A stretch of DNA of 35,613 nucleotides from Candidatus Parvarchaeota archaeon (GTDB taxonomy: Archaea > Nanobdellota > Nanobdellia > JAFCGN01 > DAOVEB01), in assembly GCA_030669205.1 (NCBI GenBank), contig DAOVEB010000001.1, positions 1 to 35,613 of the forward strand, in the 5' to 3' direction. The position numbers and the translations under genes were made by a program. Below are positions 2,014-31,510 of the stretch, one piece after another. The notes under the pieces were generated by a model. It had not been told where the DNA came from. It searched no databases and was given only the letters and a program-made list of their open reading frames with translations. Positions within the stretch are counted from its first letter, which is position 1. Each line of letters starts with the position of its first letter.

Positions 2014-3108
2014 ATGAAAACCACTGGCATAAAAAAATTAACTCCACTTCTCTTACTATTCCTTTTAGGGGGCGCAGAAGCAGTGCTCTCCATATCTCCA
2101 TCTGTCAGTCCAGCCTCAATATACCCGAACTACGATGGCATAATCACCCTGACAATAGGTAGCACGACCCTGCAGAACGACGTCAGGGTAAATGTCCAGA
2201 GCAGTGAACTAACACTTGACAGGAGCACTTCGAACCTTGGCCAAATCCAGGAGAACGGGCAGCGCTCAGCCACGTTCAAGTTCACAGCTCCCTCCACAGC
2301 AGGGTTCTACACAGTGAACTTTGAAATTTCTTATGGGACCCAGAAAACATATCAGACAGTCGCGATTAACGTGATTGGCCAGCCCGAGTTTTCAATCACA
2401 GACAAGTCGCCGCAGACCATCTACTCTGGTCAGGAAAACAACCTGAACATCACTGTTGAGAATACGGGTTACAAGGACGTCACAAATGTGATATTCGAAC
2501 TTGTTGTGCCAGAGCACTTCTCCGTCCTGAGCACAAACAGAAAATCCTTTGACACGCTGAACGTAGGAGACGAACAAATATTGGATTTCAACATATTCAT
2601 TGACAGGGACGCAGTTCCTGGAACCTACGAGTTCACCTTCAACACCATCTACCCTGGAGGCACGGATACGCAGACTTTTCACATACCTGTAATAGGAGTC
2701 CCAAATCTGGAGATAGCCGGGGTCACATTTGACCCAGAGAGTGTCAAGGCAAACCAAGCTTTGACAATAGCTGTACGATTCGAAAATACAGGCACAGCAG
2801 AAGCAAAGAGCGTGAAGGTTTCTATGAACAACCCAACAATCATCGGGCAAAAAGAGGACTACTTGGGTTCAATGGACATAGACGACACTAGTTCTGCTGT
2901 CTTTGACATATACAGCCAGGCGCTGGCAGGAGAATACACTCTGAATATGGAGGTAAGATTCATGGACGAGTATGGCAACTCCTACTCGGATTTGTTCGCA
3001 GTTACTTTGCCTGTTTTAGCTGGGCAGACGGATGTAACAGAATATCTCTACCTCGTCATAGTTGTTCTTGTCATTCTGCTTGCCCACACATGGAGAAAGA
3101 AGAAGTAG
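2014..3108 (+). CDS. Secreted, C-terminally membrane-anchored surface protein with CARDB/COG1361-like beta-sandwich repeats
   Basis: Signal peptide MKTTGIKKLTPLLLLFLLGGAEA. Repeated 'L..NITVENTGYKDV' and 'LTIAVRFENTGTAEAKSV' modules. C-terminal TM helix YLYLVIVVLVILLAH followed by WRKKK. It lies upstream of an FtsX permease and ATPase. Confidence 0.75.
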   Translation: MKTTGIKKLTPLLLLFLLGGAEAVLSISPSVSPASIYPNYDGIITLTIGSTTLQNDVRVNVQSSELTLDRSTSNLGQIQENGQRSATFKFTAPSTAGFYTVNFEISYGTQKTYQTVAINVIGQPEFSITDKSPQTIYSGQENNLNITVENTGYKDVTNVIFELVVPEHFSVLSTNRKSFDTLNVGDEQILDFNIFIDRDAVPGTYEFTFNTIYPGGTDTQTFHIPVIGVPNLEIAGVTFDPESVKANQALTIAVRFENTGTAEAKSVKVSMNNPTIIGQKEDYLGSMDIDDTSSAVFDIYSQALAGEYTLNMEVRFMDEYGNSYSDLFAVTLPVLAGQTDVTEYLYLVIVVLVILLAHTWRKKK

Positions 3109-16164: not shown

Positions 16165-16341
16165 ATGCCTGTTTGTGAGATTTGTGAGAACAACTCAATC
16201 GAGGTTTTCGAGTGTAAGAAGTGCGGTGTGAAGTTCTGCAGCAAGTGCGGAGACAGTGAGAGGGATATATGTGAAGACTGCCTCGACTATGAGAACGCTT
16301 ACCATTCTGGAATGTCGGGGGATGAAGAATCCTCCGACTAA
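16165..16341 (+). CDS. Small Cys-rich (4x CxxC) zinc-binding protein with acidic tail
   Basis: MPVCEIC...CKKC...CSKC...CEDC gives eight Cys in four CxxC pairs. TATA-like TTTAAATA at about 16131-16138. Confidence 0.55.
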   Translation: MPVCEICENNSIEVFECKKCGVKFCSKCGDSERDICEDCLDYENAYHSGMSGDEESSD

Positions 16342-16346
16342 TCAAT

Positions 16347-16403: not shown

Positions 16404-16739
16404 ATGGTAGAATACAACGCTGAAAACCTGCCCTTTGCAAAAGCAGAGGTCGTCAGGTTAATGAAAGAACTGTTACCCTCAAACAGATGGGTAACCGAAA
16501 AAGTGAAGATTGAGGCGAATCTCCTCCTGTACAAGATATTAAAGGATATCACTCTGAAACTTGCAGAGGAGCCCTTCGCAACCATCAACTATGCCATGTT
16601 CAATGAGGCGGCGATGAAGTATGATAGGTTGGATGAAATCGAGGCTGAGAAGACCCGCATCATCCGCTCAATCGAAAAGATAAAGGCGGACTGTGACGTT
16701 CTGGCGGAAGCGGTTGAGAGGAAGTTCAAACAAGATTAA
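16404..16739 (+). CDS. Histone-fold-like protein with C-terminal coiled-coil extension
   Basis: LPFAKAEVVRLMKELLP...VTEKVKIEANLLLYKILKDITLKLAEEP.ATINYAMFNEAA follows the CBFD/NFYB/HMF helix-strand-helix spacing. The usual basic RKT loop is FAT here. About 40 extra helical residues follow. Confidence 0.5.
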   Translation: MVEYNAENLPFAKAEVVRLMKELLPSNRWVTEKVKIEANLLLYKILKDITLKLAEEPFATINYAMFNEAAMKYDRLDEIEAEKTRIIRSIEKIKADCDVLAEAVERKFKQD

Positions 16740-16797: not shown

Positions 16798-16863
16798 ATG
16801 TTGAAAGAGATATCGGCAGCTATGCTTTTATTGTTGCTGTTACCACTCGCACCCCTTTTCGGT
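16798..16863 (+). other. Signal peptide of the giant protein
   Basis: MLKEISAAMLLLLLLPLAPLFG: n-region with K, Leu-rich h-region, small residues before ERN. Confidence 0.7.
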
Positions 16864-19800
16864 GAGAGGAACATTGTGGTTCTAAATCCATATGAGACAC
16901 CAGAAGTTGGTGGGGGGTGGACGGTCCGCTTCGCAACCAACGGCACCGGACTTCTGAAAATCACCAACCTGTATCCCGACGACGTCGAGTTCAACTCTAT
17001 CTACAGCGCAGAGGTGTACGCAGATGTCAGCGGGGAGTGGAAGAAACTTGAGCCGCTGGTGTCTGGCAACACGCTCTACATCTTCTGGAACTACAACTAC
17101 GGAAAGGTCGTCTACCGCGTCTGGAAGAGGGGCTCGCACGAGCTGAGGTTTGAGTTCGGAAACACTGCCCACGCGTACAACGCAGCAGGCCAAGGAACCC
17201 AGAGGGAGTTCGTGCTGAACCTCACAGACCCCATCTTTCTCTACGAGCAAACCCATCTGAACACATCTGACGAGGGTGGATTCCGCTTCTCAGGCTCTGA
17301 AACGAGATACAGTGGTGTCTCACTCCCCAACAATATCACACTCATCTATGCTTACTTAAACATAACAGGTAGTATAACACCAACCAAAACTTCGTCACCA
17401 GGGGAGATCTATGACATAAAGATAGTAGATATACTGACCGACGCCCTAGAGGATGGAAATGAAACGGTTGTAGCTATCGGAGGGGGTGGAAACTACTACA
17501 CAAAGGTCCTTAACAACTCTTTTTATGAAAAAAAATCGTTCACTGCTGGAGACACAGTAAATGCAATCGACATTGCTAACATTGATCCAGACTTGCCAGG
17601 TTTGGAGGTTGTGGTAGGCTCGGACGACTACAGCGTCTACCTTCTGAACTACTCCTTAGTTGAAATATGGAGCAAGTCATCAAGCTATGTTATCAATGAC
17701 GTGGCCGCAGGTGAGTTAAACAGCACCTATAATGGACAGGAGATAGTTGCTGGATACGGTGGTGACAAGGTCACTGTTTTCAATATGACTGGCCAGACCG
17801 TTTGGACTATACAACCAGGTGGGGCTACAAAAACGGTTGCAGTTGGCGATGTTAACGACAGTGCAGGCAATGAGGTAGTTATTGGTTCTATCAACCACAC
17901 TATCATCTATGACTCGAAAGGTTCCCAATTATGGAACGAAAGCATACCCTCAGGCTTGATAAACGCCATTGACGTAGAAAACATATCTGGCGGCGCTTAC
18001 GAAGAGATAGTACTTGTTGACTCCCTTGGTTATCTGAGGCACCTAAACTCCTCAAGAAAATGGTGGAACACATATGTAGGCGGTAACTTGCTCTCTGTTG
18101 CTGCAGGAGAGATAGACAGCAGTTCTGACGGTCTGGAGATTGTTGTCGGTACAGACAATGGAGAGGTGAAGGCTTTCAATTCAACAGGGGGTTATTTGTG
18201 GGAGTACTCGGTTGGCACAACCAGAGAAGTTAAAGGGATTGATATAGGAAACTTTACAACCGAGGCAGGACAGGAAGTGGTTGTTGGTGTGAGGTTGGGC
18301 TCAGGTGACAACGTATACTCATTTAATTTTGACAACTTCCCCACAGAGTCCTACATAGAGATTGGCGGGGACCTCTCATCAGAGTGGGACTGGGTCAACG
18401 GGAGCAAGTTCAGGGGTAATGGTGAGATAACCAACGGGAGTATGTGGGGGAACATCTCTGACTACATGGACACGTGCGACGCCTGGCTCTGTGACGTCCC
18501 GTTCACAGCGAACTCAACATATGCAGGCGAGTTCGACTTTGACCTAAACGTGACGTACGACTACAACTTGAGCAGTGTTGTGAAAATGGAGTTGGTGAAT
18601 GTTTGGTCAAGGACATACGAGGTGAAAGTGAACGAGACAATGGGAAACCAGAGCTACAACATTTCATTCGAGATGAACCCGCAGGAAAGCCTGCTGGTCC
18701 AGCACGTCGTTCTGAACGAGACAGCGACCCTCTGCCACTTCAACAACACTGTTTATAACATGAGCGCGTCTGGTTGCGACGTGGCGGACTTCATAGTAAC
18801 GCCGACCAGCAGTCTGCCGCCATCGGCCTTGTACTGGGACAACAACATGTCGCGCACAATGCCGGTTGTGATAAATATGAGCGAGAACTTCTACGCCGCA
18901 CCATGGAAGCACAAAAACATAACAGTGAGGAACGACACAACACACGGACCAAACATCATATTCTACAACGTGACAGCAAATCTCAGTTTCGCCGGCCAGG
19001 GTTTCGCGAGTCCTATAACCTTCTCAGTTGACTGGTGGTCGAACGGCACCTTCTGGAACATAACTCCCTCAACGCTCACCGAAACTTGTAACACCACCTC
19101 ACCAACGTATGAGAGCAGGGTGCTTGGCGGCGAGACCTTCTTCATCTGCGGCCAAGACACAGATGGGGACGCGCAGCTGGATTACATAAAGTGGAAGCAA
19201 CCGCACACCTTCTTCAACGACTCGTCGCAAATAGATTACATGCTCAACGGAACCGGCAACACTCCACCGGTCTACTGGGTTGATAGTGTGGATGTCACAC
19301 CCTCCACTGACATCTGGGGCCATGTCTTCAACTTCTCAATCACTTTCAACGACAGCGAGGAGGACCCGGTGAACGCGACGCTCTACACTTGCACACCACT
19401 AACAGGATGCCTCGCAAACGAAACGCTCAACTCAACTTCAACAACAAACTACACCTTTGTGTGGAACATCACGTCCTGGAACGACTGGGTGAACAGCACA
19501 GCAAACAACTACTTCTACTTCGAGTTCAAGGACCCATACATAGGCTGGAACAGCACGGAGAACTTCTACGGTCCGGCTGTGGTCAGGAGGGACGCCATCC
19601 TTGAACCAATCACGAACGAAACAGTTGTGAACAGGACGGGCACAAACACAACCTATTTTCTCTTCAGGGTATACGACCCGAATGCAACGGACTATGTCGG
19701 CTCAGGCATAAGCTGTCTGGTGAACGTCACAGAAAACGGCTCCAACTATGACGATGGTAACCTTGATGTCACCAACCCATCCGGGGACTGCAACATAACC

Positions 19801-22800
19801 TTTGACCCAGACGGAAACTACTCGGTTGGTGTGCAGAAGTTCACAGTCGGGGTATTCAACAGCTCATACTACAACGACAATATCACAGAGATGTATGGCC
19901 TCGAGCTCGAGATATATGGCGACCTTGACGTGTCTCTGTCTGTTGACCCGACAGGCATAGTTGACAGGTGGAACAACAGCGATCGCCATGACTCGAACAT
20001 AACCTGGACGATATCCGGTGTCCAAGACGACAACGGCACAGACGTCTCTGGCTACACCGTCTGGCTCTACTGGCGCAACTCCCTGCTCAACACAACTGAC
20101 CAGAGCCAGGGGTTCATCGACATACCGGATGAAGCCCCACTGGACCAGTCCGACGACTACTTCCAAGTTGTCGTTGGCAAGCAGTACTTCAACAACCATA
20201 CCAACACATCAGCGGATTACCTAGTTGAGGGCAAGCTCAACTTCACGATTCTCACCCCGAACGGGAGCCAGGTTATGAGGACATTAGGAAGCCCAAACAG
20301 GCTAAACCTCACGATAAATGTGACGGACGAGCTCGGGAACAGCGTGGAAGACACCAACCTTGAAATAGTATGGTACATCCCGCCTGACGGTTGCATCAAC
20401 CTCTACAACAGCAGCGGCAACTACACCTGCGAGTTCAACCCTGGTCCAGCAACACTCGGTCTCTACAACTGGAGTGTCTTCGTCAACCGCAGCGACTATG
20501 ACTGGGTCGCGAACCTCACAGACTCGTGGATGCACATAAACGGCACGATGAACTTGACGATAATGACAACAACACCGTTCAACAGGACAGTTGAAAAGAA
20601 CATAGCAGCGAGGATAATGGATGAAGCCAAAAGCACAATAGTCGAGCAGGGGCACAACTGCACATGGTACATAGACGGTGCAGAGGTCGGAACAAGCTCC
20701 ACGAACAGCAGCGGCTACTGTGTCATGAACTGGACAAGCACATGTGGCGACCCCCTCGGCAAGCATACAATAAATGTCTCGATAACAGGGGTGAACAGCA
20801 GCTTCTGGACACCGATCACCGAGAACAAGACCCAGGTGCTCCACCTCATGGACGTATTTTATATCACCATCGACTCGCCAAACAACACCATAGTGCACAG
20901 GGGTGAACCATTTGACCTGAACGCGACTGTCTTTGACTCGTGTGGACCTGCAACTGGCTTCAACCTCACATGGTACAATGAGACCACCAACCTGACAGAT
21001 GGCACAGAGGTGAACAACACATGGACCATACCAGACAACTATAGACTCAACTATACCGAGATAAACACAACCGCAATCGGCGGCAACTACACGACCAATG
21101 CCACGTCCTTCTTCCTCAGGGTCTTTGGCTGGGCCGAGCCAATCTGGATTTCGCCGATGGACAACATAACATTCGGTGTTGAGTACAACCTAACCTGTCT
21201 CATAAGGGATAACACCACTCTCGAATTCATCTCTGGTTACAACGCGTCCTTCTGGCAGAATGAAACAATGCCACCTCCACATTCCGGGATTGACATCTTC
21301 ATAGGAACAGGTACGACAAATTCAACTGGCTACGCCCTAATGAACTGGACTCCGTTACACTACAGCGGCACATACGGCGTCATGTGCAACCTCAGCCATA
21401 ACGAGACCCTCTGGTATAACAACAGTGGTGTGGAAGCCTTAGTAGTCCTGCCTGTCTACGACAACGAACCTCCCAGTATAAATGAGACGCTGATAAGCAA
21501 CAAAACAGTTGAGGCAAACTACGAATACACATTGATATGGGCAAATGTCACAGATGATGTAGACATCGATATGGTCTGGGCAGAGATAGAGAACGACACC
21601 TCTGTTGAAAATATCACTCTCAACTTCAAGAGCGCCCAAATCATAGACGGGCACGTGCAGGAGGTATGGGACTATGAATATTTCCCACCAATCGGAGGAA
21701 TTTACAACGTCACTGTATGGGTCAACGACAGCACGAACCACACAGTATCCCAGTTTGTTGGAAACTTCACTACAATAGGCCACACAACTTCGGACCTGTG
21801 GGTGGCGACAGATGATGTCTACCACGCGGCGGATGAAGTGACCGAATATCCGTACGACCACGACACCTTCTGGCTCGACACGTACGTGAACAACACCGGC
21901 AACGGAACCATGTACAACATGGTGGTAGAGTTCACAGGACCTTCGGGTATCTACTTCAACGAGCAACCGACATACACAACTGACCAGACAAATGTAACAC
22001 CGGGTAGTAGCACAACTCATACCGCGGTCAATGTGAAGACAACAACGTACCCGCCGCTGGGCAACAACACAATAACAATAACCCTCAAGTGGCAGAATGC
22101 GAACCTAACAGACGGAGAAGTCGTGAATACCACATTGGTCGACCTCAAAAACATGACCTACATCGAACTCACAGACCAGGGTGCGGTCATACCTCCAATA
22201 GTGATCGATTATATTCCGAACGGCACATCGAGGATTTCCAAAAATATCACCATAGAGGCCTACGGCACAACAGAACTCTTGGACGTGAACATCACATTCG
22301 GCACCTGTGATATCTCCTCTTGGCTCAACTTTACGCCGTTCTGGGACATCTCGTACATCGGGAAAAATGAGCAGAACGCTACCGGCCTCAACGTCACAGT
22401 GCCTGCAGGCGAGTCGCCAGCCATAAGGACATGTGAGATAATATTCAATGCAACCGGCTCGGCAGAGGTCTGCGGAGGTCCGGGAGAGAGATGTGACAGG
22501 CAGTTCACATACGAACTCCATATAGTATCAGAGGAGTGGAATGTGACGCCTTTGCTTCTGAACAAGACCGTTGGTCAGAACTCGTTCGGCGCGATTGGAA
22601 CCATAAACGTAACCAACAGGGGAAACAACATACTGAGTTTCAATATGTCTGTCTTTGGCGCGGGTGGGAATGTCACAGCACATAACCTCACCACGAACGA
22701 CGAAATCAGCAACTTTACAGTGGGCCCCTTTGAAAGTGTGCCAGTACTTGCCCGATGGAATGCAACAGGCGCGGAGCCAGAGAATCACACAGCCGAGATT

Positions 22801-25800
22801 GTCTTTGACATCAACGACCCACTGAGAATCCCACAGCAGGAAAATGTAACCGTCTTCCTAAATGTAACAGACGTAACATTCAACATAGTTTGGCCGCATC
22901 ACTCCAGTCCAAAAACAAACGTAACAGAAGATGACGTAATAAACATCATAGTTGATGCTCAACTGGGCGGAACACCAATCGGAACGGGTGAAATAGAGTG
23001 GAGTGTGAGTGTCGGCGGTGAGTTAGTTGGAAGTATGGTTGAAGGGAGCGTGCAGTGTAATGTCATAAACGCTGTCTTCAACTCAATTGGCGATTACATG
23101 TGGAACCTGAACTGCACAGCCCCTCACATAGAAGGCAATGTCATAGACAACATGCTCTTTGTTGAAGGCAACATAACAGCGCAGAGCATAGTGACCAACG
23201 ACTATGAGCTGGACGCGGTTGTCTATAGGGACGTGACTGCCCCAAGGTTCACCGACATAAACAGCTCGTGTGTGCAACCAGGGGAGACATTCATACTCCA
23301 CTTCAACGTCACTGACAATACAGGAATAGCCAATGTCACTGCCACATTCCAGTATGAGGATAACGCGCCAACAAACATAACCGCAAACCTCTCCTATGAG
23401 GGAAACAATAGGTGGAACTGCACGCTTTACGGTCTCACTTCAGTAGGCGACTACTGGATAAACGTAACCGCAGTTGACACCAGCTCCTACCAACACAGGA
23501 ACAACACAGTTGTCTGGTTCGACGTCTTCAACCCAGTATACTTCGACGGCACCATGAAGGACCCATTGGATAACAACGTAACAGCGGTTTTCAACTTCTA
23601 TGTCCCATCATACAAGAGTAAGAATGGCGCTGTGCTTGCCCACACCTTCAACACATCACAGAGTGCGGAGTTCAACAGAACATTGCACAAGAGGGCATAC
23701 GACCTCGAAATCCTGGCGTTCAACCACACACTCGACTATTTCAACCTGAGCACAGACGTCCCGGACAGTAACATAAGTGACTATATAACTCTGGACAACC
23801 TCGATGCCAGCTCAATAAATGTTGACCCAGACATCACATACTACAGTGTCATAGGGGTCTACGTTGGAAATCTTCTCTCCTACAAATCAGCCGCAATCAG
23901 AATCAACTTCACAACAGCCACACCTTACGTAACCCATTATGGGCTGGGTGACTTCTACCCTACCAGGTTCAGGGTCTACAGGTGCGACAACTGGAACTTT
24001 TCATCTGTCTCGTGCAGCGGGTCGTGGACAAGCGCTGGTGGAATGGTTGACAACAACCCAGCATCACCCTACTACGAAACAGTCTATCTCACAACAACAT
24101 CGACCTCTGCCTTCGGCCTCATACAATGCGAAAGGGATGACTGTGCCGGACCGCCTGAACCACCAGGTCCTGGTCCAGGTCCTAGTCCAAGTTATCCCCC
24201 AAGCACAACAACCGTGTGCGGCAACGGCATCTGCGAAACCGGTGAAAACTCCGAGAACTGCCCGCAGGACTGTGGGGAGGCCGCACTCCAACTTGGTGCT
24301 GAGACAACGCTGTCCGAGGTGTACATGAAACCAGGCGAGAACAGGACCTTTACACTCACCATAAGCAACACACACACCTCAACAAAGAGCGTCTATGTGG
24401 CGATATCCGGAGAGATAATGAATTACATAAAACTCGGTGAGACCTTTCTCAACATACCCGGACAGTCGTCAAGGACGATTCAGATGGTGGCAACCATACC
24501 TATGGAAGCCGAACCAGGGGCCTATACAGGAGACATAATTATAACCTCTGAAGGCAGGAGCAGGCAGGTTCCGGTCACGCTGATAATCAGCTTGGAGGGC
24601 GCGACGTCCCTCCAGCTCGCGCTCAACGCGCTGACCAAGCAGGTCTCTCCTGGGGAAACGTTCAAGTTCAACCTCATAATATACGACCTGGGTCTTGTGA
24701 AGGTCGTTCCAGTCAACCTGACATACAACGTGAAGGACGTGGCAACTGAGAGCATCACTGCCCAGGTTGAGAAGAGCATGGTCGTCGAGTCCACCCAATC
24801 ACTGATAGAATCGATGGATATACCTGAAAACGCGTCGCTCGGCAACTACTTGATAGAAGTCGTTGCCGTGTATTCAAACAAAACCGTGTCAGCAATCGAC
24901 CAGTTCGAGATAGTGTTGCCATTTTGGACACCTGAGCGCATAGGCATTGCCCTAATATTCATCATAGCGATCAGTGGCACGATGCTGGCGTACTACGGCA
25001 GAAAGAGATATATGGAGTGGAAGTTTGAGCGGGCCAAGTATATCTTCCCAATCAGTTACAGGGCGCTGCCGATGAAGAAAGAGAACTCAATCTGGCTGGG
25101 TAAGATTGCTGAGACAAACAGGAAGGCGTGGTTCTATCCAGACCTGATGACTACACACGTGCTGGTAAGTGGCTCGACTGGAAGCGGCAAAAGCGTGGCA
25201 GCATCCATAATAGCAGAGGAAGTCCTCGAAAAGAAAATACCAGTCATAGTCTTTGACCCAACAGCCCAGTGGACAGGGTTTGTGAAACCATGCACAGACA
25301 AAAAGATGAAGGAGAACTACATTTCCTTTGGGCTTGGTGAGAACGATGCGAGGCCCTACAAAGGAATGATATTTGAGGTCGATGACCCTAACACCTACAT
25401 CGACATAAAAGAGTACATGAACCCTGGAGAGATAACTATATTCACGCTGAACAAACTAAAACCAGGCGAATACGACACTGCTGTATGGAACATCGTTGAC
25501 TCAATCTTCTCGATAAGTTGGGAAGAATCAACCGAACTTAAGATGATAGTCGTCTTTGATGAGGTCCACAGGCTGCTTGAGAAGTATGGCGGTCGTGGGG
25601 GTTATGTCGCCCTTGAGAAGGCGGCTCGTGAGTTCCGTAAGTGGGGTATTGGACTGGTGATGGTCTCCCAGGTGTCAAGTGACTTCAAGGAGGCAATCCA
25701 AGGCAACGTTTTGACAGAGGTACAGATGAGTACCAAATCGATGACAGACATAAAGAGGATAGAAAGCAAGTTTGGTCCTGATTTCGCCAAGCGCATATCG

Positions 25801-26118
25801 CGTGAAGCCGTAGGCGTCGGCATGCTCCAAAATCCAAAGTTCAACCGTGGAAAGCCTTACTTCATAGAGTTCAGACCAACAAAACATTTCCCACACAAGC
25901 TGCCTGACAAGGAGCTGGAGATGTACAAAGATTTCACCGCCAGGCTGGAGGTTGTGGAAGAGCTCATCTCACAGAAAAAGAGAAAAAGAGAGGACGTTAT
26001 GGACTATCTACTGGAGCTCAAGCTTGCGAAGGAGAAGCTCCATAGCGGAAGGTTCAGGATGGCAAAGATATACCTTGACTCGCTTGAGCAGAAACTTGGT
26101 GTAAAAGATGCCAGTTGA
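16798..26118 (+). CDS. Giant (3,106 aa) type I membrane surface protein with a cytoplasmic HerA/FtsK-type P-loop ATPase domain
   Basis: Uninterrupted 9,321-nt ORF. Contains a signal peptide, FG-GAP-like propeller, sequon-rich Ig-like tract, Pro hinge with Cys module, CARDB-like domains, one TM helix, Walker A GSTGSGKS, Walker B VVFDEVH, and GIGLVMVSQ. Confidence 0.95.
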   Translation: MLKEISAAMLLLLLLPLAPLFGERNIVVLNPYETPEVGGGWTVRFATNGTGLLKITNLYPDDVEFNSIYSAEVYADVSGEWKKLEPLVSGNTLYIFWNYNYGKVVYRVWKRGSHELRFEFGNTAHAYNAAGQGTQREFVLNLTDPIFLYEQTHLNTSDEGGFRFSGSETRYSGVSLPNNITLIYAYLNITGSITPTKTSSPGEIYDIKIVDILTDALEDGNETVVAIGGGGNYYTKVLNNSFYEKKSFTAGDTVNAIDIANIDPDLPGLEVVVGSDDYSVYLLNYSLVEIWSKSSSYVINDVAAGELNSTYNGQEIVAGYGGDKVTVFNMTGQTVWTIQPGGATKTVAVGDVNDSAGNEVVIGSINHTIIYDSKGSQLWNESIPSGLINAIDVENISGGAYEEIVLVDSLGYLRHLNSSRKWWNTYVGGNLLSVAAGEIDSSSDGLEIVVGTDNGEVKAFNSTGGYLWEYSVGTTREVKGIDIGNFTTEAGQEVVVGVRLGSGDNVYSFNFDNFPTESYIEIGGDLSSEWDWVNGSKFRGNGEITNGSMWGNISDYMDTCDAWLCDVPFTANSTYAGEFDFDLNVTYDYNLSSVVKMELVNVWSRTYEVKVNETMGNQSYNISFEMNPQESLLVQHVVLNETATLCHFNNTVYNMSASGCDVADFIVTPTSSLPPSALYWDNNMSRTMPVVINMSENFYAAPWKHKNITVRNDTTHGPNIIFYNVTANLSFAGQGFASPITFSVDWWSNGTFWNITPSTLTETCNTTSPTYESRVLGGETFFICGQDTDGDAQLDYIKWKQPHTFFNDSSQIDYMLNGTGNTPPVYWVDSVDVTPSTDIWGHVFNFSITFNDSEEDPVNATLYTCTPLTGCLANETLNSTSTTNYTFVWNITSWNDWVNSTANNYFYFEFKDPYIGWNSTENFYGPAVVRRDAILEPITNETVVNRTGTNTTYFLFRVYDPNATDYVGSGISCLVNVTENGSNYDDGNLDVTNPSGDCNITFDPDGNYSVGVQKFTVGVFNSSYYNDNITEMYGLELEIYGDLDVSLSVDPTGIVDRWNNSDRHDSNITWTISGVQDDNGTDVSGYTVWLYWRNSLLNTTDQSQGFIDIPDEAPLDQSDDYFQVVVGKQYFNNHTNTSADYLVEGKLNFTILTPNGSQVMRTLGSPNRLNLTINVTDELGNSVEDTNLEIVWYIPPDGCINLYNSSGNYTCEFNPGPATLGLYNWSVFVNRSDYDWVANLTDSWMHINGTMNLTIMTTTPFNRTVEKNIAARIMDEAKSTIVEQGHNCTWYIDGAEVGTSSTNSSGYCVMNWTSTCGDPLGKHTINVSITGVNSSFWTPITENKTQVLHLMDVFYITIDSPNNTIVHRGEPFDLNATVFDSCGPATGFNLTWYNETTNLTDGTEVNNTWTIPDNYRLNYTEINTTAIGGNYTTNATSFFLRVFGWAEPIWISPMDNITFGVEYNLTCLIRDNTTLEFISGYNASFWQNETMPPPHSGIDIFIGTGTTNSTGYALMNWTPLHYSGTYGVMCNLSHNETLWYNNSGVEALVVLPVYDNEPPSINETLISNKTVEANYEYTLIWANVTDDVDIDMVWAEIENDTSVENITLNFKSAQIIDGHVQEVWDYEYFPPIGGIYNVTVWVNDSTNHTVSQFVGNFTTIGHTTSDLWVATDDVYHAADEVTEYPYDHDTFWLDTYVNNTGNGTMYNMVVEFTGPSGIYFNEQPTYTTDQTNVTPGSSTTHTAVNVKTTTYPPLGNNTITITLKWQNANLTDGEVVNTTLVDLKNMTYIELTDQGAVIPPIVIDYIPNGTSRISKNITIEAYGTTELLDVNITFGTCDISSWLNFTPFWDISYIGKNEQNATGLNVTVPAGESPAIRTCEIIFNATGSAEVCGGPGERCDRQFTYELHIVSEEWNVTPLLLNKTVGQNSFGAIGTINVTNRGNNILSFNMSVFGAGGNVTAHNLTTNDEISNFTVGPFESVPVLARWNATGAEPENHTAEIVFDINDPLRIPQQENVTVFLNVTDVTFNIVWPHHSSPKTNVTEDDVINIIVDAQLGGTPIGTGEIEWSVSVGGELVGSMVEGSVQCNVINAVFNSIGDYMWNLNCTAPHIEGNVIDNMLFVEGNITAQSIVTNDYELDAVVYRDVTAPRFTDINSSCVQPGETFILHFNVTDNTGIANVTATFQYEDNAPTNITANLSYEGNNRWNCTLYGLTSVGDYWINVTAVDTSSYQHRNNTVVWFDVFNPVYFDGTMKDPLDNNVTAVFNFYVPSYKSKNGAVLAHTFNTSQSAEFNRTLHKRAYDLEILAFNHTLDYFNLSTDVPDSNISDYITLDNLDASSINVDPDITYYSVIGVYVGNLLSYKSAAIRINFTTATPYVTHYGLGDFYPTRFRVYRCDNWNFSSVSCSGSWTSAGGMVDNNPASPYYETVYLTTTSTSAFGLIQCERDDCAGPPEPPGPGPGPSPSYPPSTTTVCGNGICETGENSENCPQDCGEAALQLGAETTLSEVYMKPGENRTFTLTISNTHTSTKSVYVAISGEIMNYIKLGETFLNIPGQSSRTIQMVATIPMEAEPGAYTGDIIITSEGRSRQVPVTLIISLEGATSLQLALNALTKQVSPGETFKFNLIIYDLGLVKVVPVNLTYNVKDVATESITAQVEKSMVVESTQSLIESMDIPENASLGNYLIEVVAVYSNKTVSAIDQFEIVLPFWTPERIGIALIFIIAISGTMLAYYGRKRYMEWKFERAKYIFPISYRALPMKKENSIWLGKIAETNRKAWFYPDLMTTHVLVSGSTGSGKSVAASIIAEEVLEKKIPVIVFDPTAQWTGFVKPCTDKKMKENYISFGLGENDARPYKGMIFEVDDPNTYIDIKEYMNPGEITIFTLNKLKPGEYDTAVWNIVDSIFSISWEESTELKMIVVFDEVHRLLEKYGGRGGYVALEKAAREFRKWGIGLVMVSQVSSDFKEAIQGNVLTEVQMSTKSMTDIKRIESKFGPDFAKRISREAVGVGMLQNPKFNRGKPYFIEFRPTKHFPHKLPDKELEMYKDFTARLEVVEELISQKKRKREDVMDYLLELKLAKEKLHSGRFRMAKIYLDSLEQKLGVKDAS
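17401..18336 (+). other. Seven-blade FG-GAP/PQQ-like beta-propeller region (aa ~202-513)
   Basis: Seven repeats of the pattern [D/G-x-acidic loop]-E-[IV]-V-[VA]-G followed by a strand ending in W or N. Examples: GNETVVAIGGGG, GLEVVVGSDD, GQEIVAGYGG, VAVGDVNDSAGNEVVIGS, YEEIVLVDS, DGLEIVVGTDNG, GQEVVVGVRLG. Confidence 0.65.
18337..24147 (+). other. About 1,900-aa beta-rich tract of repeated Ig-like modules, saturated with N-x-S/T sequons
   Basis: Recurrent module ends such as SGYCVMNWTSTCGDPLGKHTINVSITG, TGYALMNWTPLHYSGTYGVMCNLS and GNYTCEFNPGPATLGLYNWSVFV resemble bacterial Ig-like (Big/invasin-type) domains. Module boundaries not resolved by eye. Confidence 0.55.
24148..24273 (+). other. 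Proline-rich hinge (GPPEPPGPGPGPSPSYPPS) followed by four-Cys module CGNGICETGENSENCPQDC
   Basis: Read directly from the translation (aa 2451-2492). Confidence 0.8.
24280..24912 (+). other. Two membrane-proximal CARDB/COG1361-like beta-sandwich domains
   Basis: VYMKPGENRTFTLTISNTHTSTKSVYVAISGE...PGAYTGDIIITSEGRSRQVPVTLIIS and VSPGETFKFNLIIYDLG...LGNYLIEVVAVYSNKT have the same pattern as the 2014-3108 and 30465-31478 proteins. Confidence 0.55.
24940..24999 (+). other. Single transmembrane helix of the giant protein (aa 2715-2734)
   Basis: IGIALIFIIAISGTMLAYYG followed by RKRYMEWKFERAK (positive-inside). Confidence 0.85.
25075..25917 (+). other. Cytoplasmic HerA/FtsK-superfamily (DUF87/COG0433-like) ATPase domain
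   Basis: THVLVSGSTGSGKSVAASIIAEEVLEKKIPVIVFDPTAQW (Walker A at 25171-25194), KMIVVFDEVHRLL (Walker B at 25543-25569), and AAREFRKWGIGLVMVSQVSSDF (the HerA-type RK.G.GL...SQ motif). Confidence 0.75.
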
Positions 26119-27100
26119 AAAGCAGACGATTTCGGGTAAGGAACTACTGATAAAGGTAGAGAAAGCAGACGTGCGCATTGAATCCATTGAGTCAAAACTA
26201 ACAGACATCTTCGACCACTTCTCCCAGATAAATGAGGAGATAGGGGAAATCCGCTCAATGGTGATAGAAAGGGAAAGGGGGGTTCTTGAGATGCGGACTG
26301 AGTTCGACAAGATGAAAGACGATGTATCACACGTTGAGCCGGAAAAGACTGCGAGAAGGATAGATAGTTTTGACCAGACCCTGCTTGAGACAGCAGCCAG
26401 GATAGAAAAAACAGAGGCCAAGGTCGAGGAGTTGAAAAACGGACTCGACGTCTTCAAGGAGAAGTTAAAGGGTATTCAGAGCACGGAGAACCTTCTCGAC
26501 CTCCTAAAAGAATTAGACGAGAAAGCAAGGAATGTAACCGAGTACAGCAATCACTCGGAGAGGATGGCCGCAAAGGCTGAGAAGATGTTCTTGGAGATAG
26601 ACAAAAGGCTTCCGGAGATGGAAAGTGCGATGGACAAAATCAATGACGTGGGTGGTATGGTAAACCAGATAGTAATGGATATTGACGCGATAAAAATAGA
26701 GTTGAAAACGGCCGTGCACAAAGAGGACATAAAGAGGATATGGGGCGAGATAGATGACATCAAAGGTATGCGGCCGCATAGGGAAGAGGCCATAACCAGA
26801 ATACCCAAAACAGGGGAAGTGTTGGAAATAGAACTCCCTGGAGAAGAGGTGCCAGAAATAATTGAAATTCCAAGACCTGTGACAGAAGAGAGTGAGACGA
26901 AGGAAGATGTGATTCCTGCCATGTTGGATGAGGCATATGGCTACCTGAAGATGGGGGGGAAGAGTTCTGCAATGCAGATATACCGGAAAGCCTTGGAAGA
27001 TTACAAGGAGATGCGAACGACCAACCCGATCAAGGCAGCTGACCACTATGAAAGGATAAACAAACTCTACAAGGACATCCTGGCCCAAGGGTCAAAATGA
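26108..27100 (+). CDS. Coiled-coil protein with acidic linker and C-terminal MIT/TPR-like three-helix motif
   Basis: Start overlaps the giant ORF end by 11 nt. About 220 aa of heptad-like helices, then an E/P-rich linker, then AMLDEAYGYLKMGGKSSAMQIYRKALEDYKEM...AADHYERINKLYKDIL. Confidence 0.75.
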   Translation: MPVEKQTISGKELLIKVEKADVRIESIESKLTDIFDHFSQINEEIGEIRSMVIERERGVLEMRTEFDKMKDDVSHVEPEKTARRIDSFDQTLLETAARIEKTEAKVEELKNGLDVFKEKLKGIQSTENLLDLLKELDEKARNVTEYSNHSERMAAKAEKMFLEIDKRLPEMESAMDKINDVGGMVNQIVMDIDAIKIELKTAVHKEDIKRIWGEIDDIKGMRPHREEAITRIPKTGEVLEIELPGEEVPEIIEIPRPVTEESETKEDVIPAMLDEAYGYLKMGGKSSAMQIYRKALEDYKEMRTTNPIKAADHYERINKLYKDILAQGSK

Positions 27101-27405
27101 AGCATGAATATATCTGCAAGAAATGCGGCTACAGATGGAGAAGTGATGGGGCGCGCTACTGTCTCAACTGCCACTCTGACCGGGTAGAAAGGCACTCCTC
27201 CAGCAGAAAACTGCTTCAGACCCTGAGGAAATTGTTCTCAACTGACAGAAGAAAATATCGAGATCAGTTCACCAAAGGACGCGAAAAGGCGATGGATTTG
27301 TTGGTTGACGTCTGGCACAGCGCAGCGACATTCATTTTTGTCATAGCGGTCTTCATCGCCCTCTTGCTGCTGATGTTCCTCCTGTCCCAAAGAGGTTTTG
27401 TCTGA
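27097..27405 (+). CDS. Tail-anchored zinc-ribbon protein
   Basis: ATGA overlap with the upstream gene. CKKCGYRW...CLNCHS zinc ribbon, a basic linker, and C-terminal TM helix AATFIFVIAVFIALLLLMFLL. Confidence 0.7.
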   Translation: MKHEYICKKCGYRWRSDGARYCLNCHSDRVERHSSSRKLLQTLRKLFSTDRRKYRDQFTKGREKAMDLLVDVWHSAATFIFVIAVFIALLLLMFLLSQRGFV

Positions 27406-28298: not shown

Positions 28299-29021
28299 TC
28301 ACTCAGCGTATCTAGGACCTGTTGGTGCTGGCAGAAGACGCTGCACTACGAAAAAACCAACAACAAGTACCAGGAAAAGGAGTAACAGTGACTCAATCAG
28401 TCCAAGGAACGGTAAAGTGAGCAGGAGTGTTATCGATAGTGCCAGGGAGACGACCCAGGCAGCAACGTTCCATGAGAGTATCTTGCTGCCATCCAGTGGC
28501 GGGATTGGTAACAGGTTGAACAGAGCCACCCACAGGTTCATCTCGATAAAGTAGGTGAAAAATGCCGGATGGACAGGGTGTAAGACCTTCAACAGAAGCG
28601 CGAGCAAAACATTAGCAATCCATCCTGCAACGGCCACCTCCCCTGTCTCTTTAAGTGTCAGTCCCATGAACTTGTAGCCAAGGCGCATCGAGTACTTTGT
28701 GGATACGTTCACAAAACCAACAGCAGCAACAACCAGCACAAACTGGCCAAAGCTCATGATGGAGATGAAAAGAGTGAGCAAAATGGAGACAGCTATGAAG
28801 TGTGGGGACATGAAGTAGATGGTCCTGCACTCGTAGCGGCGCGCCATGAGCTTCTGGGCTGCAACATGCAGGGTCCACACAACCCCACTGAGAAGTGTTG
28901 CCATGAGCAAGTTCATCAGCCAAGGCGAACCCTCAGGAAGAAAACCCGGGGAGAATGAGAACAGAAAGCCAAGTGCGACTATGGAAACCAACATGTCCCC
29001 TACCTCGCGGATTGTGAACAT
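28299..29021 (-). CDS. Site-2 protease (M50)-like membrane protein with degenerate active site (HVAAQ in place of HExxH)
   Basis: Retains the NLLPIPPLDGSKIL (NxxPxxxLDG) helix and the polytopic layout. The expected HExxH position reads TLHVAAQKLMARRY. ATG at 29021. Confidence 0.72.
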   Translation of the reverse strand: MFTIREVGDMLVSIVALGFLFSFSPGFLPEGSPWLMNLLMATLLSGVVWTLHVAAQKLMARRYECRTIYFMSPHFIAVSILLTLFISIMSFGQFVLVVAAVGFVNVSTKYSMRLGYKFMGLTLKETGEVAVAGWIANVLLALLLKVLHPVHPAFFTYFIEMNLWVALFNLLPIPPLDGSKILSWNVAAWVVSLALSITLLLTLPFLGLIESLLLLFLVLVVGFFVVQRLLPAPTGPRYAE

Positions 29022-29059
29022 AGACAATTGATAGTCCTGCCTGATATTTATTATTTATC

Positions 29060-29848
29060 CTAAACACTGCTAAGATAGATTATGTAGTTTATTTCAGGCT
29101 CTGAGTAATCGAGTGTAAATGTCCCGCAAAGCTCGATTGTATCCCCTTCGGAAAAGACGGTCTCCTCAACATCGTACAGCTTCCATATTTCGACATTCTC
29201 TCCGTCACAAAGAAGGAATATCTGGTACAGATTTCCGGCGCGTGAGGTATAGGTGTCGATATCAGAGCACACCGTGCCGTTTGTGATGACTTGCACCCCG
29301 TCGTATGCGTCTTGCTGGGCGATGAGCGAACTTATGGATATATATTCGCCCTCACAGGTGACAGCCCTCTGTGGTGCAAGTATGAGCGCAACTGAGAAGA
29401 GGGCGACGAAGCCGAAGGTAAACCGCCTTATCTTCTTTGGAGGAAAATGGTTGAGCATCTCAACTATGGCGTAACGGTTTGCGAGGAGAACGCCGCATAG
29501 CGCAATCGTCCCGATGTTGAAAACAGGGTCTCCGGAGGCAACCAGCCTGAAGGAGAAACTCCTCAGGTAGGGATAAAGGAACATGACGCCCATTGGTGTT
29601 ATGGAGTCAAGCGCGATGTGGGAGAAGAAGCCGAGGAAAAGCGAAATTGATGCGCGTTTTCCGAACTTCCACTGGACCAAAGCTGTGAGCAGGAGGCCAA
29701 AAAGCAGTGAGTGGAAAAACGTCCTGTGCGCAATCGGCAGGAGGAGGTCTATGTCCGGCACAACCGCGCCGAAGACCACGAATGGCATGTCCAGTACTAG
29801 GAGCATCGAGAGCGTGAGCGCGGCAACCACGTGGGTTATCGAGTGCAT
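29060..29848 (-). CDS. Membrane-bound metal-dependent hydrolase, DUF457/YdjM family, with extra C-terminal soluble domain
   Basis: MHSITHVVAAL..., VVPDIDLLL..HRTFFHS and GFFSHIALDSITPMGVMFLYP fit the YdjM motifs. ATG at 29848. Confidence 0.72.
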   Translation of the reverse strand: MHSITHVVAALTLSMLLVLDMPFVVFGAVVPDIDLLLPIAHRTFFHSLLFGLLLTALVQWKFGKRASISLFLGFFSHIALDSITPMGVMFLYPYLRSFSFRLVASGDPVFNIGTIALCGVLLANRYAIVEMLNHFPPKKIRRFTFGFVALFSVALILAPQRAVTCEGEYISISSLIAQQDAYDGVQVITNGTVCSDIDTYTSRAGNLYQIFLLCDGENVEIWKLYDVEETVFSEGDTIELCGTFTLDYSEPEINYIIYLSSV

Positions 29849-29884
29849 AGTCTGGATTCCGAACTCCAACTATAAAACAATTAC

Positions 29885-30427
29885 TCAGAACCCTAACAGC
29901 GAGGTTAGCAGCTGAAACCCGTCTGTTCCGGGCAGTGGAAGCATATTGAAGGCAAAGAGCCACATGTTTATCTGTTTGAATACATGGAAGTAAAGGTAGT
30001 TCCTGCCCGAGGCCAGTTCATATTTGGTCACCACATAGCCAACAAGGAAAAAGATTAGGTTGACCACTGGCCCAGCAAAGGCGATTGCGGCGTAGGCGAG
30101 GCGCGAGCCGAAACCGTAGATGGAAACGTACGCCGGTACGAAGAACAGGAACGGGAAGCCGAACATCTTCATAAGAACCCCGATACCAAGCCAGGTGTAC
30201 GACGCATGGTAAACAGCTGTGAAGCCAAAGGACATTGCGACGAACTTGTGACCGAGCTCGTGGACTATGACTGCAGGCGAGACAACCAGCATCGCCAGCA
30301 TGAAGTTCCTCCTGTCCTCCCCTCGGTACAGGAACTCGGTTGTGGGCAGGCGAAACATGTCCTTGAACATGTAGCCTATTGCAACCACTGTCACAACCAT
30401 GCCAAAGAGTTCGGATACGTTGAACAT
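29885..30427 (-). CDS. Site-2 protease (peptidase M50) family, minimal form
   Basis: Canonical VIVHELGHKFVA (HExxH) and FNMLPLPGTDG (NxxPxxxxDG) motifs. Confidence 0.85.
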   Translation of the reverse strand: MFNVSELFGMVVTVVAIGYMFKDMFRLPTTEFLYRGEDRRNFMLAMLVVSPAVIVHELGHKFVAMSFGFTAVYHASYTWLGIGVLMKMFGFPFLFFVPAYVSIYGFGSRLAYAAIAFAGPVVNLIFFLVGYVVTKYELASGRNYLYFHVFKQINMWLFAFNMLPLPGTDGFQLLTSLLGF

Positions 30428-30464: not shown

Positions 30465-31478
30465 TTACCTTCTCACTACCTTCCAGACCAGGTAAAGTAC
30501 AACAAGCACGAGGAACGTTATGAGTACGCCTCTCATGGTGCTGTCGCCCAGCATGTCCATGAGCCTGTCGAAAAAAGTTCCTTCTGTTAATTGCAGAGAA
30601 ACTGTCGACGTCGAGCCGTCCGAATCGATGTAGTTCATCTCCACTGACTTGACCCCCGCTGATGTTGGGAGGGTGAAGTTGTGCTCTGTGCTCTCGCCAG
30701 ACTCTACCTCAAGGAACCTATCAAACGTCTCTTCGCCTGTTGAAATCAAGAATGAGAAGTTCTGGTCCATGTTGCCGTCGTTGGTCACCTTCACATGCAG
30801 AACAGAAAACCCTTCGGAGGCAAAGGTGTAGACATCTGTGAGGTTGACGGAAACAGACGGAACCACTATGTTGATGTTCAGGTTCAGGGAATGTCTCAGC
30901 GTGCCGTTTTCCCCTCTCACTGCAAGGGAGGCGCTCAAGCTCTCGGTTCTCTGTATCTGGACAGTTATATCTTGGGTCTCGCTGACTCCAAGTTTGAAAT
31001 AAAGTGGTGACACTGAGTAGATGCGTGTTGGGATTATCGAAATCTCAAGGGGTATGTTACCCGTGTTCTGGAGGTTGTAAACCTTTGTTGTTATATTGTC
31101 AAACGCATAGACAGTGTCGGAGGTTACCATGGTAAGCAACGCCTCAGCTGTTATCTCCAAATTAGCTGTTGTGCTCGCTGTCTCCCCATTCTCAGCAAAC
31201 ACCTCAAACCTTATTGTGTAGTTGCCAGCCGGCGTGTTGGACACGTTCCACTCGTACTGGCTGGAAAGGCCGCTGGCGAGCGTTGTGTGGTTGAAGACCA
31301 GAATGTCATTTGCGCGAGCTGAGAAGTTTGTGAGTGACGGCTCGTCCAATGAAAAGGAATAGGAGATGATGACCTTATCTCCGAGACCAACCTGGTCCCT
31401 GTTGAGTTCAACGCTGGCCGATATTGCAGAGGCTCCACCAATCAACAACAGGCCAAGGAAAACCAATAGCTTCCTCAT
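30465..31478 (-). CDS. Secreted, C-terminally membrane-anchored surface protein with CARDB-like beta-sandwich repeats
   Basis: Signal peptide MRKLLVFLGLLLIGGASAISA, modules such as YNLQNTGNIPLEISI and LHVKVTNDGNMDQNFSF, and C-terminal TM helix GVLITFLVLVVLYLVW followed by KVVRR. Confidence 0.75.
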   Translation of the reverse strand: MRKLLVFLGLLLIGGASAISASVELNRDQVGLGDKVIISYSFSLDEPSLTNFSARANDILVFNHTTLASGLSSQYEWNVSNTPAGNYTIRFEVFAENGETASTTANLEITAEALLTMVTSDTVYAFDNITTKVYNLQNTGNIPLEISIIPTRIYSVSPLYFKLGVSETQDITVQIQRTESLSASLAVRGENGTLRHSLNLNINIVVPSVSVNLTDVYTFASEGFSVLHVKVTNDGNMDQNFSFLISTGEETFDRFLEVESGESTEHNFTLPTSAGVKSVEMNYIDSDGSTSTVSLQLTEGTFFDRLMDMLGDSTMRGVLITFLVLVVLYLVWKVVRR

Positions 31479-31510
31479 ATTAAATATCACTCCAGTCTGA
31501 AATAAAAAGG

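Follow-up and report, generated by a model that had tools for sequence, protein, structure and literature searches.

Giant SPEARE proteins and a family member from a Parvarchaeota contig

Giant proteins of the Nanohaloarchaeota were named SPEARE in 2019, when one of them was detected by proteomics (Hamm 2019, PMC6642349). In that description, the conserved part of these proteins is intracellular and lies behind a C-terminal transmembrane (TM) helix, adhesion-type domains, at least one of them laminin-G, are found in the ectodomain, and similar sequences occur in Woesearchaeota, Aenigmarchaeota, Micrarchaeota, and Altiarchaeales (PMC6642349). The intracellular part was later re-annotated as a VirB4/TraG-like ATPase with a coiled coil behind it, within a protein ordered as signal peptide, immunoglobulin (Ig) domain, PQQ-like propellers, Ig repeats, TM helix, and ATPase, for which a "straw" resembling a type IV secretion system (T4SS) was proposed (Reva 2023, PMC10266531). 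In essence, a motor that combines adhesion with translocation was already put forward there for the nanohaloarchaeal giants (PMC10266531). A 3,105-amino acid (aa) protein of the mud-volcano DPANN metagenome-assembled genome (MAG) KA24 was also termed SPEARE in 2021 (PMC8470020). Here we describe a gene at 16798..26118 (+) of a 35,613-nucleotide (nt) stretch of DNA from Candidatus Parvarchaeota archaeon (contig DAOVEB010000001.1; the whole stretch is called the window below), which encodes a type I membrane glycoprotein of 3,106 aa with a C-terminal ATPase and which, going by its alignments, almost certainly belongs to the published SPEARE family.

The original prediction for this gene, made from the DNA letters alone, knew of no characterised protein with such an architecture. 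That claim falls, the architecture having been published as SPEARE in 2019, re-annotated in 2023, and reported for the KA24 protein in 2021. The window protein is a compact, non-halophile SPEARE giant, and the assignment of its ATPase to the HerA clade, its coiled-coil partner, and the breadth of the family are among the additions made here.

Over the last ~600 aa, the window protein is 42-44% identical to the Nanohaloarchaeota giants. The C-terminus of SVXNc_0300 (9,409 aa) aligns with aa 2510-3103 of the window protein at 44% identity over 598 positions (E 2e-157) with no large gaps, and the giant of the SG9 nanohaloarchaeon (8,573 aa) aligns with the last 627 aa at 42% identity over 635 positions. 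A short paralogue, P0099, shares 41% identity over 593 aa, and P0088, which is the SPEARE locus tag AQV86_02330 of Hamm et al. (PMC6642349), shares 54% over the cytoplasmic domain. The KA24 genome was recovered in our search as locus L025 with a giant open reading frame (ORF) of 3,105 aa, nearly equal in length to the window protein and 33% identical over 78% of it.

Features common to the window protein and the giants of nanohaloarchaea and EX4484-52 are the signal peptide, the propeller head, the adhesin-like ectodomain, the single C-terminal TM helix, and the ATPase with its terminal helices; the same coiled-coil gene lies downstream as in the Nanohaloarchaeota. In contrast to the nanohaloarchaeal giants, the window protein is about one third their size, has one propeller where they have two, and comes from an organism outside the halophile lineage. 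The last point rests on the leucyl-tRNA synthetase encoded in the window, the best named matches of which are from Nanoarchaeota/Nanoarchaeia (58% and 50%) and Aenigmatarchaeota (46%), placing the organism in the DPANN. Compared with its nearest relatives, the window protein shares only ~30-35% identity in the ectodomain.

Gene, topology, and ectodomain

The gene is a single unbroken ORF by the ORF list and its translation, collinear with the homologues P0122-P0128 (~2,900-3,100 aa). The uninterrupted frame and the order of parts originally predicted both stood. Hydropathy analysis finds only two hydrophobic segments of membrane-span grade in the giant. The first, at aa 5-23, marks a signal peptide (aa 1-23; 16798..16866, +), and an equivalent N-terminal peak is present in complete homologues. 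The second is the TM helix at aa 2715-2734 (24940..24999, +; hydropathy peak 2.09), which reads IGIALIFIIAISGTMLAYYG, is followed by RKRY, and forms part of one continuous helix in the predicted structure (model residues 233-266). N-terminal of the TM helix there are 160 NxS/T sequons, against 47+-6 expected from shuffling, and there are none in the 361 cytoplasmic residues; likewise, the isoelectric point (pI) is 4.2 for the outer part and 9.0 for the inner part. Because there are just two such hydrophobic segments and because sequons and pI are so asymmetric, a type I topology with the N-terminus outside and the C-terminus inside is well supported by sequence alone. The original prediction of a signal peptide, of a single TM helix followed by RKRY, and of an ATPase lying behind that helix was therefore correct.

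We modelled the N-terminal head with AlphaFold2 (AF2) from an 8-sequence alignment (model mbf996c1f2681), which gave a mean predicted local distance difference test score (pLDDT) of 77, with 80-93 in the propeller portion. The model contains a small beta-sandwich (aa 134-211; 17197..17430, +; strands in model residues 2-78) followed by 28 strands arranged as seven sets of four, a predicted seven-bladed beta-propeller at aa ~223-544 (17464..18429, +). Foldseek returned beta-propellers for the head, and when the head was scanned alone, Pfam reported a PQQ_2/BamB-like match of 35.7 bits against a cutoff of 27.6. The blades had first been described as seven and FG-GAP-like; the number stands by both AF2 and Foldseek, and the FG-GAP label is loose and gives way to PQQ_2/BamB-like.

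The head is followed by a central ectodomain of ~1,900 aa (18430..24129, +) that falls in no database family; Pfam gives no match to it with the threshold relaxed to E<=1, and BLAST finds no repeats within it. It is rich in sequons (10-19 per 200 aa) and bears weak similarity to a tract of SVXNc_0300 that was published, from modelling, as Ig-like. The original prediction read this stretch as Ig-like modules; here they stay putative, the weak similarity to SVXNc_0300 being what points to them. Laminin-G, protease, endonuclease, and toxin-like domains had no Pfam match in the ectodomain, which is a weak negative given that Pfam is blank across the central 1,900 aa.

A core module conserved across the family begins at a proline-rich hinge (aa 2452-2472) and a four-cysteine module (aa 2474-2492, CGNGICETGENSENCPQDC), together at 24151..24273 (+). 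The four-cysteine module is found in short and giant homologues alike with the consensus CGxxxCx8CxxDC. An AF2 model of the last 627 aa, built with 54 homologues (model m6b4cb7afab01; mean pLDDT 89), shows a pair of Ig-like sandwiches leading into one long TM helix, behind which come a RecA-like ATPase core and, at the C-terminus, three helices. The two membrane-proximal sandwiches (aa 2499-2597 and 2605-2705; 24292..24912, +) have pLDDT values mostly above 90 and retrieve WxLIP, RbmA, and the CEP192 SPD-2 domain in Foldseek, along with sub-threshold Pfam matches to NPCBM_assoc, DUF4625, and FixG_C, which are CARDB-type folds. The hinge, the four-cysteine module, and the pair of CARDB-like domains had all been read from the sequence beforehand and are borne out here, the CARDB-type resemblance being sub-threshold in Pfam.

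The cytoplasmic domain is assigned to the HerA clade

Behind the TM helix lies the cytoplasmic P-loop ATPase (25000..26115, +), with its core at aa ~2765-3025 and C-terminal helices at aa 3037-3099. Each of the motifs on which the original prediction had based a HerA/FtsK-class assignment was found: the Walker A motif GSTGSGKS (aa 2792-2799; 25171-25194, +), FDPTAQW (aa 2819-2825), the Walker B motif MIVVFDEVH (aa 2916-2924; 25543-25569, +), and REFRKWGIGLVMVSQ (aa 2944-2958; 25627-25671, +), which carries the arginine-finger/sensor motif REFRKWG..SQ. Invariant among 55 sequences are G-TG-GKS in Walker A, FDE-HR in Walker B, REFRKWG-G..SQ, and a PxxHxPHK motif.

Pfam, PDB profile, and Foldseek searches all point to HerA for this region, in agreement with the class first proposed for it. 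The Pfam DUF87/HerA central domain PF01935 matches above its cutoff (E 7e-10), and HerA_C matches as well. In the PDB, both single-sequence and profile searches retrieved HerA-type structures, namely 4d2i (Sulfolobus HerA), 8wiv (SIR2-HerA), 9x1l (HerA-NurA), the DUF4297-HerA entries 8ziq and 9c1m, and YjgR (11kk). Foldseek concurs, with HerA-type structures as the best matches to the ATPase. Structures of VirB4, VirD4, and FtsK did not appear at E<=0.01 in the PDB profile search or among the Foldseek top 50, and FtsK chains reached only E 0.4-0.6 in the single-sequence PDB search. A weak PDB profile match was obtained to IcmO/DotL (E 0.0025), and sub-threshold Pfam matches were obtained to AAA_10, T4SS-DNA_transf, TrwB_AAD_bind (E 0.0023), and FtsK_SpoIIIE PF01580 (E 0.049; 13.5 bits against a cutoff of 24).

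On these sequence and structural-model comparisons, the cytoplasmic domain is a HerA-clade ATPase and not an orthologue of HerA, CedB, CedD, VirB4, or FtsK. Among NCBIfam models, CedD, HerA, TraB, and CedB match best, and none comes near its orthologue cutoff; CedD is the top match with 53.9 bits (E 1e-14) against an equivalog cutoff of 600, HerA scores 36.5 against 800, and CedB 24.4 against 700. Compared with HerA itself (4d2i and 9x1l, together with the SIR2-HerA and DUF4297-HerA complexes), the window protein has in common the RecA-like fold, Walker A, Walker B, arginine finger, and sensor glutamine. It differs in being anchored in the membrane by a TM helix, in bearing an extracellular domain, and in having no HAS barrel; none is seen in the core model, since the TM helix continues directly into the ATPase core. 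Genes for NurA, Mre11, Rad50, SIR2, and DUF4297 were not found near the giant gene in the window, and an orthologous HerA was rejected on this ground as well as on the missing barrel and the low score.

The Ced system offers a parallel in that CedB and CedD are also membrane-anchored HerA-like ATPases and, by analogy, a DNA-handling motor at cell-cell contact would be comparable (PMC11868833). The Ced proteins, unlike the window protein, have a cytoplasmic domain resembling the VirB4 N-terminal domain and no large ectodomain (PMC11868833). With this difference in architecture, with scores under the cutoffs, with no polytopic membrane partner adjacent, and with neither a CedA-type channel nor Ups pilus genes found in the window, we rejected a CedB/CedD identity.

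FtsK/SpoIIIE/TraB and the T4SS ATPases VirB4 and VirD4/TrwB are ring ATPases of the same superfamily, with the membrane tether N-terminal of the motor and with the concept of polymer pumping in common. Each of their subunits has two to four TM helices, and a giant ectodomain is lacking. To these the window protein gives sub-threshold matches only, none of them significant in the PDB. An FtsK/SpoIIIE identity was rejected with PF01580 under its cutoff and one TM helix only, and a VirB4/TraG-type T4SS ATPase was rejected with the VirB4 N-terminal domain PF03135 not found in the giant (nor listed for the short paralogue P0099), with no significant VirB4 or VirD4 structure, and with no T4SS genes nearby. 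The label given to the family when it was first published, "restriction endonuclease", was likewise dropped for the intracellular part, the domain being HerA-like instead; the HerA/FtsK-class call is more accurate than that label.

Family size and evolution

A query consisting of the TM helix and ATPase retrieved 397 proteins at 50-74% identity, with a typical complete length of 550-700 aa; the named matches among them are DPANN (Woesearchaeota, Aenigmatarchaeota, Nanohaloarchaeota, and Nanoarchaeia). The signal peptide, four-cysteine module, two Ig domains, TM helix, and ATPase are all present in these short proteins too. With the full-length query, 13 more giants came up in independent assemblies, with lengths of 1,896-5,242 aa, and most of the window protein is matched collinearly by proteins of 2,200-3,000 aa. 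Because the same core exists as ~550-700-aa proteins, the giants can be regarded as short forms in which the ectodomain has expanded.

Scanning the GTDB with one genome for each species turned up at least 551 stretches that encode a relative. Giant ORFs are present in most of the best 80 loci, where they fall into size classes of ~2,200, ~2,950, and ~3,100 aa, with further ORFs of >3,900 aa that run off the end of the locus; in several genomes there are two or three family copies. The named sources are mostly Aenigmatarchaeota, with Woesearchaeota, Pacearchaeota, Nanohaloarchaeota, EX4484-52, and Hydrothermarchaeota also represented. An exhaustive search of representatives yielded 350 cluster representatives at E<=1e-30, the best 150 of which have a median length of 1,574 aa and a maximum of 7,878 aa. 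Across the family, the ectodomain ranges from ~160 aa to >7,500 aa.

The SPEARE-type family extends beyond the DPANN. Giant SPEARE-type genes together with the coiled-coil partner described below are found in Hydrothermarchaeota MAGs (L046, which is the 1.9-Mb contig of JdFR-18, L057, and L033). Several loci are labelled Methanosarcinales, Heimdallarchaeota, or Makaraimicrobium, labels which mis-binning may explain.

In the species set, the closest relative of the window protein is ~34% identical, with none nearer. Whole-protein alignments average ~33% identity, as against ~60-65% for the cytoplasmic domain alone, which means that evolution has been much faster in the arm than in the motor. 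Such fast evolution of the ectodomain fits a variable binding surface.

A conserved coiled-coil partner gene

The start of the next gene (26108..27100, +) overlaps the stop of the giant gene by 11 nt and encodes a coiled-coil protein of 330 aa. It is homologous to genes downstream of other SPEARE loci, including those of N. occultus (E 4e-22) and SG9 (E 5e-22), and clustering of downstream ORFs places members of its family in 72 loci. Where at least 1.5 kb of downstream sequence was available (71 loci), the coiled-coil gene follows in the same orientation in 64, at a median distance of 38 nt from the ATPase match. Beyond generic coiled coils, neither Pfam on 36 members nor a PDB profile search returned any match, and PADLOC gave what amounts to noise from SMC-type coiled coils. 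We found no mention of this partner gene in the SPEARE papers that we consulted. The C-termini of the coiled-coil proteins are of several types, and a subset that includes the window copy ends in a short helical D.G...A...Y..L...Y motif.

A third gene (27097..27405, +) overlaps the coiled-coil gene by 4 nt and encodes a 102-aa protein with a zinc ribbon and a C-terminal TM helix. In N. occultus, a gene of 108 aa with weak similarity to it occupies the equivalent position, and the order of coiled-coil gene then small zinc-ribbon/TM gene in the window matches that of the nanohaloarchaeal loci. In a strict motif scan, the pattern of CxxC..CxxC with a tail TM helix was found at this position only in the nanohaloarchaeal loci L001 and L071 and in the window, and tblastn added a homologue in L068. 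Being restricted to these loci, the protein is not a family-wide component.

Two family genes stand in tandem upstream of the coiled-coil gene in 12 loci, with the downstream one being a short paralogue in 10 (L001, L045, L052, L053, L054, L058, L060, L068, L071, and L077). In eight of these ten giant-short pairs, the two ATPase domains are mutually nearest relatives, with a distance of only 0.027 in L071. This likeness in sequence suggests recent duplication or gene conversion, and tandem giant and short paralogues would suit co-assembly in one ring. No short paralogue follows the giant gene in the window, unlike in L001, L082, and eight other loci where one lies directly downstream.

Proposed mechanism

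The best explanation overall, to which we assign a probability of roughly 0.75, is that the window protein is a SPEARE giant with a glycosylated arm on a conserved motor core. A Sec signal peptide would export a heavily N-glycosylated arm of ~2,700 aa comprising the propeller head, a long variable stalk, and the proline hinge. This arm is grafted on the conserved core of ~600 aa made up of the four-cysteine knot, the two Ig-like domains, the TM helix, the HerA-like ATPase, and the C-terminal helices. The giant gene would be co-transcribed with the coiled-coil gene, with the tail-anchored zinc-ribbon gene following in the window as in nanohaloarchaea. By analogy with characterised HerA/FtsK-class enzymes, the ATPase would form a hexameric ring directly beneath the membrane. 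The fast-evolving arm may bind another cell, as its propeller and Ig-type domains and the DPANN lifestyle suggest, and the ring with its coiled-coil partner might then use ATP to move a polymer at the site of contact.

This mechanism of contact-dependent translocation is tentative, and we place it somewhat short of an even chance. DNA would be the likeliest cargo, being what HerA, where characterised, and the related Ced ATPases work on. Nucleotides are also something that DPANN cells have to import, and for this reason as well contact-dependent handling of DNA is ranked first.

Several points weigh against this best explanation. A pore lined by six single TM helices is too narrow for DNA, and no conserved polytopic membrane partner of the CedA or VirB6 type adjoins the giant gene. 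Our Pfam scans did not bring up the laminin-G and protease domains that some SPEARE proteins are reported to carry. The family is present in Hydrothermarchaeota, for example in L046 (JdFR-18), which to our knowledge are not known symbionts, and a purely host-directed role therefore cannot be general. In addition, the published evidence on SPEARE family members consists of proteomic detection alone (PMC6642349).

Alternative explanations

A broader possibility is that the ATPase and coiled-coil pair are the conserved core of a kind of archaeal membrane motor not described before, separate from T4SS, Ced, and FtsK, onto which varied ectodomains are grafted. Giant and short paralogues may then share mixed rings with, for instance, one arm per ring, and the window protein would be one instance among at least ~550 genomic places, some of them in free-living Hydrothermarchaeota. 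We regard this as possible, if on the unlikely side.

Alternatively, the ring might not translocate anything and could instead be an anchoring hub, in which a nucleotide-dependent ring clusters the arms, the coiled-coil protein links them to a scaffold, and ATP controls assembly, avidity, or mechanical coupling. In the SIR2-HerA and DUF4297-HerA complexes, which are among the best structural matches to the window ATPase, the HerA ring is a scaffold for assembly. Such a hub would agree with there being one TM helix in each subunit and no conserved channel partner, with the long coiled-coil protein kept as a partner in ~90% of loci, and with the mutual likeness of giant and short ATPase domains, which fits co-assembly in one ring. 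Against this, invariant Walker A and B motifs, arginine finger, and sensor glutamine, along with 50-74% identity across DPANN lineages, are what one would expect of an active motor, even if they also fit a nucleotide switch. We consider an anchoring hub unlikely.

The T4SS-like straw is more doubtful again. It holds that the ATPase is of the VirB4/TraG secretion type and that the arm forms or guides a channel for injecting protein effectors into the host, and it was put forward for the homologues SVXNc_0300 and BNXNv_0298 (Reva 2023, PMC10266531). A related paper reports cytoplasmic bridges seen by cryo-electron tomography (cryo-ET), and possible transfer of a methyltransferase, in the same consortium. 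Export of proteins by FtsK-HerA-class ATPases has precedents, such as EccC of type VII secretion, and the weak AAA_10, TrwB_AAD_bind, T4SS-DNA_transf, and IcmO/DotL matches given above lean the same way. The significant profile and fold matches, however, are to HerA-type proteins only, with the VirB4, VirD4, and FtsK structures and PF03135 missing from the results as described, and no VirB6/CedA-like, pilin, or other T4SS gene was found in the window or in the conserved neighbourhood.

A further rival is a canonical HerA (a DNA end-resection helicase) or a HerA-based anti-phage system fused by chance to a surface protein. It would account for the best structural and profile matches being HerA, SIR2-HerA, and DUF4297-HerA, and for PADLOC matches to its HerA and mad8 models at E 1e-15 to 1e-16. 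These PADLOC matches are at the level of the domain and come with no partner genes, so that a defence-system reading was rejected; the NCBIfam score, the missing HAS barrel, and the absence of NurA, Mre11, Rad50, SIR2, and DUF4297 genes nearby, with a coiled-coil protein as the partner instead, leave this explanation highly improbable.

Least likely of all is an assembly chimera or fused gene call joining an adhesin gene to an ATPase gene: there is a single assembly, the exact protein is not recorded elsewhere, and short stand-alone versions of the ATPase protein exist, but the junction lies inside a core that aligns contiguously from Ig domains through TM helix to ATPase in SVXNc_0300, the SG9 giant, and P0099, the short forms keep the same order of four-cysteine module, Ig domains, TM helix, and ATPase, the collinear 2,200-3,000-aa proteins and the size classes recur across genomes, and sequons and pI switch exactly at the TM helix. 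Because the same junction is conserved in dozens of independent assemblies, a chimera is excluded, and the worry about mis-assembly that accompanied the predicted joining of adhesin and ATPase is removed.

Other genes in the window

The rest of the window is an ordinary archaeal chromosome, with genes for L10e, leucyl-tRNA synthetase, phosphoglycerate kinase, phosphoribosyl pyrophosphate synthase, and MgtE. Directly upstream of the giant gene is a 111-aa ORF (16404-16739, +) that has no Pfam or PADLOC match and is not conserved upstream of other giants. Ahead of it lies a cysteine-rich ORF of 58 aa (16166-16342, +) with several CxxC pairs (MPVCEICENN...) and a TATA-like box in front. In a different arrangement, ORFs of ~785 aa and ~76 aa with no Pfam match stand just upstream of the giant in L002 (27-2858 and 2863-3081) and in 16 other loci; these ORFs, which belong to many Aenigmatarchaeota loci, are absent from the window.

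On the opposite strand, 30465-31490 (-) encodes a type I membrane glycoprotein of 341 aa. It has a signal peptide, many sequons, a C-terminal TM helix, and an Ig-like region that gives a weak Cep192_D3 match. It was considered as a relative of the giant's Ig pair and rejected, the two being unrelated by BLAST. Partial Peptidase_M50 matches at 28299-29027 and 29885-30427 (-) flank a gene for a YdjM-family membrane protein (29060-29869).

Significance

The locus itself is not a discovery, and it adds a non-halophile member of ~3,100 aa to the family. Giant surface proteins are the most conspicuous genes of the tiny DPANN genomes, and they are the leading candidates for how these archaea attach to and exploit their hosts. 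The HerA-like motor, the coiled-coil partner, and the reach of the family beyond the DPANN matter for the design of SPEARE biochemistry and cryo-ET.

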